DNA from: Escherichia phage ECp13
Reading direction: 5' to 3' (one strand)
Length of the DNA stretch: 64,000 bases
Sequence record: PP274704.1
In this document: positions 8,162 through 63,049 of the stretch, piece by piece
Layout of the letters: each line of letters begins with the position of its first letter
Numbering within the stretch: the first letter of the stretch is position 1
Notes under the pieces: generated by a model
Databases searched by the model: none
What the model was told of the DNA's origin: nothing
What the model saw: only the letters and a program-made list of their open reading frames with translations
Position numbers and translations under genes: made by a program

Positions 8162-8905
<744 letters not shown>

Positions 8906-8929: not shown

Positions 8930-9187
8930 ATGAAAACTTTCAAAGAGTTTGCTACAAAAACCACTATCACTGAATCTTCTCACGGTATGGAAGTAAAGCT
9001 TGGAATGGCTTTAGCTGAAGCTGAGCGTCTTTTCTCTCGTATTAAAGAACTTGCTGCTGCAGTCGATCCTTCATCTTTTAAAGGAGACCAAACTAAAGTT
9101 AAAGCACTTTTAGCATTATGCTCCGATGCAGGAGAAATTGCTAAAAATGGTTCTAAGATGAAGAAACGATTAGAAGATTTAAAATAA
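8930..9187 (+). CDS. internal protein (IP) with capsid targeting sequence, ipI locus
   Basis: 85 aa; N-terminus MKTFKEFATKTTITE resembles the T4 IP targeting sequence MKTYQEF..; position after 57B. Confidence 0.65.
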   Translation: MKTFKEFATKTTITESSHGMEVKLGMALAEAERLFSRIKELAAAVDPSSFKGDQTKVKALLALCSDAGEIAKNGSKMKKRLEDLK

Positions 9188-9235
9188 TTTCACAAAGTTG
9201 TTTACATAGGGTTTTAGTTGTGATACTATTACCCT
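9176..9235 (+). repeat. direct repeat copy B (early promoter cassette)
   Basis: Near-identical to 8846-8905. Confidence 0.75.
9200..9229 (+). promoter_or_regulatory. early promoter
   Basis: -35 GTTTACA, 17-bp spacer, -10 TACTAT. Confidence 0.65.
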
Positions 9236-10883: not shown

Positions 10884-11195
10884 AACAAGAAACCGGGTCG
10901 CTACCGGTAAGTCGTCGGACTGATGTTCCCTGGAGTATAGTTCCTCCCACAGTTTTACTGTGTTCTGGTTCTTTACTATCACAGCTGAAACGGCGCACCG
11001 AATTATCGATTCGAGGAAATATCTTTGCCGTAAGCCGAGTAGCGTTTTTGACGGAACGTTCGGATATGGTCGAGATATGGCCTTTTAAAAATATTGAGTA
11101 GCGTCAACTGCTTAATAACCGGGTTCGAATCCCGGCGTTTCGTACAAACACTTGCCTTAGCAGGTGGAACCCCGACAAGGTTGCCGCAAGGCTTA
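10884..11195 (+). ncRNA. structured non-coding region of the tRNA cluster (possible small stable RNAs)
   Basis: No ORF; multiple hairpins; tRNA-like T-arm CCGGG/TTCGAAT/CCCGG at 11119-11135 with a pairing acceptor stem; T4 encodes small stable RNAs here. Confidence 0.25.
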
Positions 11196-11222
11196 GCCCC
11201 GACCGAAAGGTTGGGGCTTTTT
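11196..11222 (+). terminator. intrinsic terminator hairpin
   Basis: CCCCGACC-GAAA-GGTTGGGG followed by CTTTTT. Confidence 0.6.
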
Positions 11223-11224
11223 AG

Positions 11225-11232
11225 TATAAATA
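11225..11232 (+). promoter_or_regulatory. late promoter TATAAATA
   Basis: Exact TATAAATA 40 bp upstream of the IP-like gene at 11273. Confidence 0.55.
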
Positions 11233-11272: not shown

Positions 11273-11746
11273 ATGAAATCATATGCTCAATTTTTAAATG
11301 AAGCGGTGTTAAATGAAGCATCTAGCACCGAAATTCAAGCCGTCGCAAAAGCAGCCATTGCAGCGGGTAAATATTCCTATAAAGATGCTTCTGACGAATC
11401 ACGATTCCAATTTGCTCGCGACATGAAAGCAGAAGGATTTACGGGAAATGCGGTTAGTATGGCCTGGAAAAGTCTAGTTGCTACTGGCGCTGCTTTTGCA
11501 AAGGCTTCGGGTAAACCTGCTCCTAAAGCAGATCCTAAAGCTGCACAAGAAAAAAATATCGTTAAAGGAATTATCGCTAAATATGAAGCTATCCTTAAAG
11601 AGCTTTTAGTAATCAAAACCGAAGGCCAAAAGTTAGCCCGTGCTTATAGTTTCAAAGATAATCCACATGTTCACTCTCTTGAGTATGTTGAAGACATTCA
11701 AAAAATTATTAAAGACCGCATTTGGTCTGCTAAACAAATCAAATAA
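11273..11746 (+). CDS. internal-protein-like protein with capsid targeting sequence
   Basis: 157 aa; N-terminus MKSYAQFLNEAVLNE; late promoter upstream; flanked by near-identical hairpins. Confidence 0.65.
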   Translation: MKSYAQFLNEAVLNEASSTEIQAVAKAAIAAGKYSYKDASDESRFQFARDMKAEGFTGNAVSMAWKSLVATGAAFAKASGKPAPKADPKAAQEKNIVKGIIAKYEAILKELLVIKTEGQKLARAYSFKDNPHVHSLEYVEDIQKIIKDRIWSAKQIK

Positions 11747-11754
11747 CATTCTTA

Positions 11755-11782
11755 ACCCCGACCAAAAGGTTGGGGCTTTTTG
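11755..11782 (+). terminator. intrinsic terminator hairpin (near-duplicate of 11196-11222)
   Basis: CCCCGACC-AAAA-GGTTGGGG followed by CTTTTT. Confidence 0.6.
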
Positions 11783-11914
11783 GTATCTAGGCCTTTCTGG
11801 ACCTCTCTAGGCATCATTTAGTTTATACCCTTTATAATATATTATCCTATCTTTTAATTGCCCCTCCCTGCCCTAGAATTCCCTAAAAATTTTTAAAAAT
11901 TTTTTCACAAAACT

Positions 11915-22875: not shown

Positions 22876-23169
22876 ATGGCCTTAAAAGCAACGGCACTAT
22901 TTGCCATGCTAGGATTAGCGTTTGCTTTATCTCCACCAATTGAAGCGAATGTCGATCCTCATTTTGATAAATTTATGGAATCTGGTATTAGACACGTTTA
23001 TATGCTTTTTGAAAATAAAAGCGTAGAATCATCTGAACAGTTCTATAGTTTTATGCGAACGACTTATAAAAATGACCCGTGTTCTTCCGATTTTGAATGT
23101 ATAGAGCGAGGCGCGGAGATGGCACAATCATACGCTAGAATTATGAACATTAAATTGGAGACTGAATGA
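22876..23169 (+). CDS. rI: lysis inhibition regulator RI (antiholin)
   Basis: 97 aa; N-terminal signal-anchor; matches recalled T4 RI. Confidence 0.82.
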   Translation: MALKATALFAMLGLAFALSPPIEANVDPHFDKFMESGIRHVYMLFENKSVESSEQFYSFMRTTYKNDPCSSDFECIERGAEMAQSYARIMNIKLETE

Positions 23170-23552
23170 AATTCAGCGACTTTTCACAAAGTGGAAAACC
23201 TTCAAAGGCAGATGAATACTTAGGTTTATTAATGGCTGCACAAGCTTATTTTCATTCTGCACATTTTGAAACTAAAAGTTATGCTAGACACAAAGCATAC
23301 GATTTTATTTTCTCTGAGTTGCCAGATTTGATTGATAAATTTGGTGAGCAATATTTGGGGTATTCTGGTAGAAAATACACGCCTTCTATTCCAGATGCCA
23401 GTAAACTTCCTACCGACACAATTAAAATGATTGATCGCATACTAGACCAATCTAACAGCATTTATAAAGAAATGCCTCCAGCCATTCAAAGCACGATAGA
23501 TGATATTACTGGGATGTTTTACCAGAGTAAATATCTTCTTTCCCTCGAATAA
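23166..23552 (+). CDS. hypothetical protein (rI.-1-like)
   Basis: 128 aa; ATGA overlap with rI. Confidence 0.55.
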
Positions 23553-23556
23553 CATT

Positions 23557-23581
23557 AGTCTCCTTCGGGAGACTTTTTTCA
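23557..23581 (+). terminator. intrinsic terminator
   Basis: AGTCTCC-TTCG-GGAGACT followed by TTTTTT. Confidence 0.7.
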
Positions 23582-23589
23582 TTTTACCG

Positions 23590-23619
23590 GTTTACTTTCC
23601 ATTTGAGCTGTGATACTAT
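23590..23619 (+). promoter_or_regulatory. early promoter
   Basis: -35 GTTTACT, 17 bp, -10 TACTAT; cassette near-identical to 62747-62810. Confidence 0.6.
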
Positions 23620-23647
23620 ACAACCATCGGATAAAGAGGAGAACATC

Positions 23648-23836
23648 ATGAAAATTGAAGCACTCAATCAAGAAGGAAATATCTACGTCATCATTAATGG
23701 TGATTTTTTCGTCAACATGGATGAAGTTACTAGTGAAGAACTTGTAGAACTTCTTAAGAAACGCTATAGTATGTGTGATGAAGCTGCGACTCATATGGCG
23801 TGTGCAATATTTTCTCTTTCATATGTGGTGGAATAA
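23648..23836 (+). CDS. hypothetical small protein
   Basis: ATG at 23648 after RBS AAGAGGAG; 62 aa. Confidence 0.45.
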
Positions 23837-24018
23837 TGATTAGTATTGAACAAGCAGATAAAATTAAAGAATTGGTAGCTTTAATTCGCAAAGCAGATGA
23901 GGAACGCATTAACTTTGCCTTATCAGGTATTGAAGAATTTGAAGCTAAAGTTGATAATGCTTTAGAAGCGTTAGATATGTTTCTTGATGAAATTATCGAT
24001 CATAATACGAGAGTTTAA
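23836..24018 (+). CDS. small helical protein, tandem paralog family member
   Basis: 60 aa; N-terminus [17 protein letters not shown] shares pattern with next three ORFs. Confidence 0.45.
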   Translation: MISIEQADKIKELVALIRKADEERINFALSGIEEFEAKVDNALEALDMFLDEIIDHNTRV

Positions 24019-27551: not shown

Positions 27552-27553
27552 TA

Positions 27554-27580
27554 GGGAGCCTTCGGGCTCCCTTTTTATTT
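27554..27580 (+). terminator. intrinsic terminator
   Basis: GGGAGCC-TTCG-GGCTCCC followed by TTTTTATTT. Confidence 0.7.
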
Positions 27581-27600
27581 CAAAATTTTTTCACAAAACG

Positions 27601-27630
27601 GTTTACAAGCATAAAGCTTTATGGTACTAT
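27601..27630 (+). promoter_or_regulatory. early promoter
   Basis: -35 GTTTACA, 17 bp, -10 TACTAT; shares leader with the 11.9k, 29.0k and 53.7k promoters. Confidence 0.6.
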
Positions 27631-27664
27631 ACAACTATCAACTGATACGGATTTGGAGAATAAA

Positions 27665-60437: not shown

Positions 60438-60602
60438 ATGAAAACATATAAAGAATTTATTAAAGAAGATATGGTAGCTGGAGATTCAGGTGGTAATCCT
60501 GAAAATATCTCCACTGGAACAACGTCAGGTGCTGTAGTAAATAAAGGTCCTGAACAGATTCCTAAAAAGAAAAAAGAGGAATCTAAAGAAAAAGAAGAGT
60601 AA
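60438..60602 (+). CDS. small peptide with capsid-targeting-like N-terminus
   Basis: 54 aa hand-translated; MKTYKEFIKEDMVAG... then Gly/Ser-rich and KKKKEESKEKEE tail. Confidence 0.45.
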   Translation: MKTYKEFIKEDMVAGDSGGNPENISTGTTSGAVVNKGPEQIPKKKKEESKEKEE

Positions 60603-62491: not shown

Positions 62492-62737
62492 ATGGCTAGT
62501 ACTCGCGGTTATGTTAATATTAAAACATTTGAGCAGAAATTAGATGGAAATAAGAAAATTGAAGGAAAGGAAATTTCTGTAGCTTTCCCTCTTTATTCTG
62601 ACGTTCACAAAATTTCTGGTGCTCATTACCAGACATTCCCTTCAGAAAAAGCAGCATATACTACTGTATACGAAGAAAATCAACGTGATGCATGGATTGC
62701 TGCAAACGAAGATCTGTGGAAAGTAACTGGTGGTTAA
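62492..62737 (+). CDS. soc: small outer capsid protein Soc
   Basis: 81 aa; MASTRGYVNIKTFEQKLDGNKKIEGKEISVAFPLY... matches recalled T4 Soc. Confidence 0.9.
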   Translation: MASTRGYVNIKTFEQKLDGNKKIEGKEISVAFPLYSDVHKISGAHYQTFPSEKAAYTTVYEENQRDAWIAANEDLWKVTGG

Positions 62738-62746
62738 TAAATTCAA

Positions 62747-62771
62747 GGACTCCTTCGGGAGTCCTTTTTTC
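62747..62771 (+). terminator. intrinsic terminator
   Basis: GGACTCC-TTCG-GGAGTCC followed by TTTTTT. Confidence 0.7.
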
Positions 62772-62780
62772 ATTTTACCG

Positions 62781-62810
62781 GTTTACTTTCCAAAACAAGT
62801 ATGGTATAAT
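62781..62810 (+). promoter_or_regulatory. early promoter
   Basis: -35 GTTTACT, 17 bp, -10 TATAAT. Confidence 0.6.
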
Positions 62811-62836
62811 AAAATTATCTTATAGAGGAGAGCACT

Positions 62837-63049
62837 ATGTTAAATCGTTGGATTAAACCAAATGAAGACCTCCAGAAGGTTCTTGATAAAGCTATCTCTG
62901 ATAAATGGGGTATGAAAAGCTGGGATTGTGATATCGTCACGCATTCATTCATGATGCATGCAGATGGTTCAGTCGAGTTCAATGCTGAAATGCGATACAC
63001 TGACTGGGGTGGATTTCAAAGAGTCGAATTTCAAAGAGGCTTTTTGTAA
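62837..63049 (+). CDS. hypothetical protein
   Basis: 70 aa; RBS GAGGAGAG. Confidence 0.5.
   Translation: MLNRWIKPNEDLQKVLDKAISDKWGMKSWDCDIVTHSFMMHADGSVEFNAEMRYTDWGGFQRVEFQRGFL

Follow-up and report, generated by a model that had tools for sequence, protein, structure and literature searches.

Two intergenic sites in a T4-like phage genome, 39 kb apart, carry almost the same 43-nt piece of regulatory DNA, which raises the question of what the two copies do and how they came to be so alike. The window, by which we mean the whole 64-kb stretch of DNA analyzed here, is a Tequatrovirus (T4-like) genome in the orientation opposite to T4 numbering. Copy A (module A) lies between rI.-1 and mobD.5, and copy B (module B) between soc and mrh.2; the first-pass annotation had placed one copy after rI.-1 and the other after soc, which the open reading frames bear out (Table 1). 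The DNA flanking copy A is 94–99% identical to about 500 Tequatrovirus/phage records, and that flanking copy B is 99% identical to Shigella phage Sfk20, with lower identity to many other phages.

Extent and setting of the repeat

What A and B have in common is an exact tract of 29 nt (CTTTTTTCATTTTACCGGTTTACTTTCCA), on the plus strand at both sites, and, just upstream of it, an identical 12-nt hairpin core (CTCCTTCGGGAG); the gap between these two blocks holds one substitution and a 1-nt indel (AC versus TCC). Local blastn aligns the two copies at 95.3% identity over 43 columns, and the likeness breaks off sharply at either end of the repeat. The first-pass coordinates (23561–23600 and 62751–62790) were right to 1–2 nt, and the exact tract is longer than the about 20 bp below which that annotation was to be given up. 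No third copy was found in the 64-kb window with a 27-nt pattern (≤3 mismatches), with a 20-mer or with the hairpin, and 100 shuffles likewise gave 0 matches to any of these, the 27-nt pattern again being allowed ≤3 mismatches.

By length, the 29-nt tract ranks second among the exact direct repeats of the window. The longest one, of 32 nt, is shared by two tandem early promoters 330 bp apart (8846–8877 and 9176–9207). All exact repeats of at least 20 nt in the window lie in an early promoter or a CUUCGG hairpin, except one local tandem repeat, and T4 has 18 exact direct repeats of at least 25 nt, nearly all in early-promoter regions; the longest T4 repeat of early-promoter type is 58 nt (55.3 versus 146.8 kb), and repeats of 43, 42, and 40 nt are found between other distant sites. 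Because promoter and hairpin repeats recur in this manner in the window and in T4, the A/B pair is not very special. Other repeats in the window were noted as well. Two GAAA-loop terminator hairpins (CTTAGCCCCGACCGAAAGGTTGGGGCTTTTT; 11192–11227 and 11751–11786), 92% identical and 559 bp apart, bracket a single 157-aa ORF (11273–11746) and so form a cassette flanked by direct regulatory repeats; the same hairpin family occurs in RB69 directly after rI. This ORF begins with MKSYAQFLNE, an N-terminus like the one that targets internal proteins of T4 to the capsid. At the gene 61.1 position, a 54-aa ORF (60438–60602) starts with MKTYKEFIKE, and its first 31 nt belong to a DNA repeat family together with 16775 and 11273 (internal-protein-like starts).

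The rI.1-rI-rI.-1 operon ends at module A. This operon is described (PMC2962797) as having a late promoter and, upstream, an early one, and a late promoter of soc is annotated in T4 X01416; since both the rI operon and soc have late promoters, modules A and B would terminate late-expressed units amid early genes. The proteins flanking the two modules are unrelated, with a 17.7-bit match only between rI.-1 and soc and none between mobD.5 and mrh.2. Thus, the repeat is not part of a larger gene duplication; only regulatory DNA is repeated. The GAGGAG of both mobD.5 and mrh.2 contains GGAG, the motif annotated as the RegB endoribonuclease cleavage site in T4 mRNAs, and on account of this overlap with the Shine–Dalgarno (SD) sequence the two messages may be RegB-sensitive early messages.

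Table 1. Coordinates of modules A and B and their neighboring genes in the window
Feature	Position	Strand	Description
rI.-1 CDS	23166–23552	+	ORF; named rI.-1 / DUF5856 in T4 relatives; last gene of the rI.1-rI-rI.-1 operon
Hairpin, module A	23557–23574	+	AGTCTCC-TTCG-GGAGACT; 7-bp stem, C(UUCG)G tetraloop; terminator scan, fold
12-nt hairpin core, module A	23560–23571		CTCC-TTCG-GGAG
29-nt tract, copy A	23573–23601	+	exact repeat
T6 tract, module A	23574–23579	+	terminator U-tract, which is also the distal T-tract TTTTTTCA of the promoter upstream element
Promoter A	23591–23619	+	-35 TTTACT 23591–23596; 17-nt spacer; TGn 23611–23613; -10 TACTAT 23614–23619
Predicted transcription start, promoter A	near 23626		inferred from sequence
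RBS and mobD.5 CDS	23636–23836	+	GAGGAG 23636–23641; ATG 23648
soc CDS	62492–62737	+	stops 7 nt before module B
Hairpin, module B	62745–62766	+	AAGGACTCC-TTCG-GGAGTCCTT; 9-bp stem, C(UUCG)G tetraloop; terminator scan, fold
12-nt hairpin core, module B	62750–62761		CTCC-TTCG-GGAG
29-nt tract, copy B	62764–62792	+	exact repeat
T6 tract, module B	62765–62770	+	inside the 29-nt core
Promoter B	62782–62810	+	-35 TTTACT 62782–62787; 17-nt spacer; TGn 62802–62804; -10 TATAAT 62805–62810
Predicted transcription start, promoter B	near 62817		inferred from sequence
RBS and mrh.2 CDS	62825–63049	+	GAGGAG 62825–62830; ATG 62837

Anatomy of the terminator–promoter junctions

Both modules pass the terminator scan for intrinsic terminators, with a G+C-rich hairpin followed by a U-tract. 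The RNA folds at −10.8 kcal/mol (z = −2.4) for the hairpin of module A and at −15.1 kcal/mol (z = −4.5) for that of module B. Between the two stems, two base pairs have changed (T-A to A-T and A-T to G-C), and as both changes are compensatory the hairpin structure appears to be under selection. On the opposite strand, the T-run after the hairpin is absent at both A and B; the terminator signal is therefore unidirectional. An Rfam scan of 23300–23900 at E ≤ 1 matched no family. A strict scan of the plus strand of the window yielded five hairpin-plus-T-run sites, three of which (23557, 27553, and 62745) have a CUUCGG loop and an early promoter within 30 nt; the most compact hairpin/promoter spacing among these three is that of A and B. 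Further CUUCGG hairpins in the window belong to families D4 and 27553. The latter site (27553–27640, in the nrdC.10/11 region) is another CUUCGG hairpin with an early promoter, and its T4 counterparts (at 55.3, 146.8, and 163.7 kb) have exact matches of up to 58 nt to promoters at a distance of 91 kb, longer than the A/B repeat.

The CUUCGG hairpin was first noticed in T4 mRNAs (Tuerk et al. 1988, as summarized in PMC4371310). Its unusually stable C(UUCG)G loop, with UUCG enclosed by a C-G pair, closes the hairpins of both A and B, whereas that description covers the loop motif generally and not a promoter fusion or a repeat between sites. In a scan of IMG/VR, the hairpin with its T-run gave more than 120 matches in unrelated contigs, so the hairpin alone is a common, non-specific motif; the specific core pattern matched 8 stretches only, after which core variants were surveyed in the metagenome scan. 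Related hairpins also occur in other settings. Outside the window, a third soc-type hairpin with T-run (AGGACTCCTTCGGGAGTCCTTTTTT, 25 nt identical) follows gene 30.9 in T4 (NC_000866, 130335–130359), where the distance from hairpin to early promoter exceeds that of modules A and B by about 25 nt; this hairpin copy is also present at five additional phage loci. In nine loci from other T4-like genera, the hairpin GGACTCCTTCGGGAGTCC with T6 stands after soc homologues and other genes; the TTTGCTTT-N12-TAGAAT downstream of it resembles a middle promoter with a MotA box, not an early promoter.

T4 early promoters are UP/−35/TGn/−10 promoters (PMC2988021), recognized here by a UP-like A/T-rich upstream region, a −35 GTTTAC, a TGn and a −10 box, and active without phage proteins. 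All of these sequence elements are present in A and B, the upstream part being T-rich (the terminator tail) and not the usual AAAATTTTTTCACAAAAC; other early promoters of the window have AAAATTTTTTCACAAAAC upstream of GTTTAC, with TTTTTTCA in nearly the same register. Promoter B passes the promoter scan (10/12 with TG), and promoter A was identified from its sequence, including the TGn, and from the promoter catalogue of the window. Both agree with the TTTACW-N17-TAYWAT consensus (PMC4122927), A as TTTACT-17-TACTAT and B as TTTACT-17-TATAAT. From the hairpin end to the −35 hexamer, the distance is 16–17 nt at both modules. Since TTTTTTCA, as part of the upstream element, is at the same time the terminator U-tract, terminator and promoter overlap at A and B. 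We found in the literature no experimental record for the mobD.5 promoter and no genome-wide TSS or terminator map of T4.

On these sequence features, both termination and initiation would take place at A and B in ECp13. The C(UUCG)G hairpin and U-tract would end the upstream transcript, that of rI.1-rI-rI.-1 at A and that of soc at B. The same T-tract, together with the 10 nt after it, would make up the upstream region of a strong early promoter of the sigma-70 type (GTTTAC, 17-nt spacer, TGn, −10), and this promoter would restart transcription 16–17 nt past the hairpin, into mobD.5 and onward at A or into mrh.2 and onward at B.

Composites of terminator and early promoter are already known, and A and B very probably belong to the PeSL (promoter-early stem-loop) kind, of which the pair is an ordinary example. 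The name was introduced in work on RB49 and phi1 that used reporter fusions and inverse PCR; the promoter and terminator functions of RB49 PeSLs were measured, insulation was shown, and mini-circles were found to arise from crossovers between neighboring PeSLs in both phages (Arbiol et al. 2010, PMC2839356). PeSLs were later extended to T4/PST as a stem-loop just upstream of the TTTACW-N17-TAYWAT promoter, followed by SD and ATG (Comeau et al. 2014, PMC4122927). Like PeSLs, A and B are intergenic and place a stem-loop terminator directly before a sigma-70-type early promoter, then SD and start codon (GAGGAG is 6 nt from the ATG at both mobD.5 and mrh.2), and they are similar copies dispersed through one genome; by analogy with RB49, insulation of transcription units by modules A and B is plausible. 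PeSLs have also been proposed as linkers for modular exchange. Their setting is a hyperplastic region, beside indels or replacements that set close relatives apart, and the variable DNA of soc and upstream of it gives B such a setting. There are differences, too: the mini-circles of PeSLs were shown for neighboring copies, whereas A and B are 39 kb apart across essential genes; site A is in a conserved and not a hyperplastic region; A and B merge the terminator U-tract and the promoter T-tract into one; and the signal that they carry is one of short-tract homogenization, not of indels.

The junctions have also been annotated before. At the soc site, T4 X01416 carries ‘put. transcription termination t 15.02’ (a palindrome) and ‘promoter P(E) 14.98’, and T4 M30001 carries ‘early promoter 14.95’; module B is the direct orthologue of these, with the same position, hairpin, and −35 and −10 boxes. 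Predicted terminator and early-promoter features also appear in other phage annotations, for fPS-2 at the junction after soc and for fPS-65 and fPS-90 at the one after rI.-1. The first-pass interpretation thus stands in its first part, a terminator followed by an early promoter, on which the terminator scan, the folds, the promoter elements, and the T4 (X01416, M30001) and fPS annotations agree; its second part, on recombination, deletion, and shuffling, is not supported, as set out below.

Proposed recombination between the copies

In that second part, A and B were taken as homology through which distant DNA could recombine, be deleted, or be shuffled, which would call for reciprocal exchange between the two. 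T4 can recombine short homologies, and PeSL–PeSL crossovers give mini-circles in RB49 (PMC2839356); moreover, a mosaic boundary falls at the left edge of module B. Yet a query joining the left side of A to the right side of B found no joined halves among 536 matching phage records, and the opposite query (left of B, right of A) found none among 506. The interval between these direct repeats holds genes 43, 41, 42, 44, 45, 46, 47, 55, 61, and uvsX. Because about 39 kb with essential genes would be deleted, a reciprocal A × B crossover would be lethal, and for the same reason the mini-circle or deletion route could not give viable products for this pair. The 29 nt of exact identity are also fewer than the roughly 50 bp cited for T4 recombination (PMC2839356), and site A has no breakpoint. 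We consider it very improbable that the copies act as substrates for such exchange.

The first-pass annotation had asked for rearrangement breakpoints at the modules in related genomes, and a mosaic boundary was found, at the left edge of B only. Site A lies in uniformly 95–99% identical DNA with no breakpoint in the diversity profiles of 15 genomes, and its region is covered by 499 of 552 records. Site B is a conserved island (93–97%), bordered on its left by the variable 3′ end of soc (∼65%) in the diversity profiles of 15–17 related sequences; on this soc side, identity rises from about 65% to 94% at the hairpin, and a hypervariable region lies further upstream of the soc 3′ end. For ACG-C40 and fPS-2, the stop codon of soc is where the match begins. 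Judged by these alignments, module B lies at a mosaic boundary, in keeping with the PeSL model, and module A does not.

We give almost no credence to the proposal that the modules move autonomously, or that a dedicated site-specific recombinase or homing endonuclease acts on them. The hairpin GGACTCCTTCGGGAGTCC does occur at several places per genome in several genera, and homing endonuclease genes (segF) come and go beside soc; however, the modules have no target-site duplications and no terminal inverted repeats beyond the hairpin, no enzyme gene is conserved alongside them, their flanks are orthologous and stable, and Rfam gave no match.

Origin of the identical cores

The exact core is present in 429 database records, in 93 of them at two places. 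In 121 records, including T4, the variant CATTTAAATGG is found, at the soc site only; T4 has it there in place of the CATTTTACCGG of the window, so that its two sites share 26/29 core positions and not 29/29. Within Tequatrovirus the core varies further: TACC, TACT, AAAC, and AAAT all occur, the −35 is followed by TTTCC or by ATATC, and site A can have CCAG. In the ten genomes for which both sites were available, A and B vary independently, and thus give no sign of ongoing homogenization. No donor promoter with the T4-type CATTTAAATGG or with the ATATC variant was found elsewhere in T4 or in the window. At the soc site, two micro-haplotypes about 10 nt apart, AAAT/AAAC ahead of the −35 and TTTCC/ATATC behind it, are found in all four combinations (sources are five loci and T4), which points to recurrent mutation or very fine-scale exchange.

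Outside the genus, orthologous modules are present at both sites in Dhakavirus (Bp7 and IME281), at the soc site in Mosigvirus RB69, and at the rI.-1 site in Winklervirus CHI14 and the metagenome locus L199. These provide outgroups from four lineages at A and three at B, compared over segments of 26–49 nt. Tequatrovirus cores are 66–80% identical to the orthologous cores of the other genera: 70–72% for A against Dhakavirus A, and 80% for B against Dhakavirus B. Within Tequatrovirus, the A and B cores do not differ (26/26), whereas those of Dhakavirus A and B agree at 73–76%; Dhakavirus A and L199 A are likewise identical (26/26). Beyond the core, the relationship is reversed. In the spacer, −10, and 5′ UTR, Tequatrovirus A is closer to Dhakavirus A (71–73%) than to Tequatrovirus B (61–65%), and the hairpin of Tequatrovirus B is closer to that of RB69 B (90%) than to that of A (78%). 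The outer hairpin stems, −10 regions, and 5′ UTRs of A and B are thus site-specific.

Since the paralogous cores are identical where the orthologues differ, and the flanks follow orthology, we think it probable, on this sequence comparison, that the identity of the 29-nt core records a past, short ectopic gene-conversion (non-crossover) tract. The direction was probably from the soc site to the rI.-1 site, as suggested by the Tequatrovirus core being nearer to the Dhakavirus soc-site core than to the widely shared rI.-1-site core. Both junctions are old and positionally conserved, and in Tequatrovirus the central 29 nt, from the U-tract to six positions past the −35, would have become identical. 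Against this account, the inner stem that A and B share (CTCC/GGAG) recurs widely, with more than 120 unrelated viral contigs carrying it, and may be convergent. Concerted evolution by ectopic gene conversion of dispersed repeats is familiar from bacterial rRNA operons and tuf genes. As in those cases, paralogues within a genome are closer here than orthologues between genomes, and the tract is bounded by site-specific flanks; in contrast to them, the A/B tract is about 29 nt long and regulatory, and would reflect a past event, not a continuing one.

Another history that leads to identical cores is an ancient duplication of the cassette, after which purifying selection kept the 29-nt core at both sites and no gene conversion took place; CATTTTACCGGTTTACTTTCC would be the ancestral state at both. 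We hold this to be rather unlikely. The same compact architecture is found at both sites in several genera, which argues that the A/B pair is old; the core takes in the U-tract, the UP region, and the −35, all of them functional; module B stands as a 93–97% conserved island beside variable DNA; A and B vary independently in present-day genomes; and the identical core could be ancestral if Tequatrovirus branches outside the other genera. However, orthologous cores differ by 20–34% between genera, and the two Dhakavirus copies (A′ versus B′) by 24–27%. The core is, moreover, polymorphic within Tequatrovirus, so selection does not freeze it, and its flanks (outer stem, spacer, −10) follow orthology and not paralogy.

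Selection could also have acted on the tight terminator–promoter fusion itself, with ectopic conversion keeping the 29-nt core matched so that both junctions act alike: polymerase that leaves the transcript at the hairpin would be caught again by the promoter next to it, and termination would be coupled to immediate re-initiation. Among the sampled junctions, the compact fusion is kept at both loci in Tequatrovirus and in Dhakavirus, at the soc junction in Mosigvirus, and at the rI.-1 junction in Winklervirus; we regard this reading as improbable. Pure functional convergence, in which two unrelated terminator–promoter junctions reached one optimal sequence, strikes us as distinctly improbable. 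It could draw on the CTCCTTCGGGAG hairpin with T-run, which recurs in many contigs from metagenomes as well as in more than 120 unrelated viral ones, and on TTTTTTCA and GTTTAC being consensus elements of T4 early promoters, but about 15 other early promoters of the window, under the same constraints, share at most 22 nt in register (a maximum that leaves out one tandem promoter pair, 330 bp apart, with 32 nt). A and B further have in common the non-consensus TTTTACCG and the TTTCCA that follows the −35, and shuffles give no match.

Taken alone, the pair matters little, the repeated DNA of the window being regulatory (early promoters and CUUCGG terminators), and in about 500 sequenced relatives there is no visible sign that cassettes this far apart drive rearrangements. 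What the pair offers is a concrete case in which the cores of two cassettes 39 kb apart are identical within a genus and diverged between genera. The incremental point is that the Tequatrovirus cores are identical to each other though other genera diverge, which suggests ectopic gene conversion of the core and bears on whether the regulatory cassettes of T4 undergo concerted evolution.
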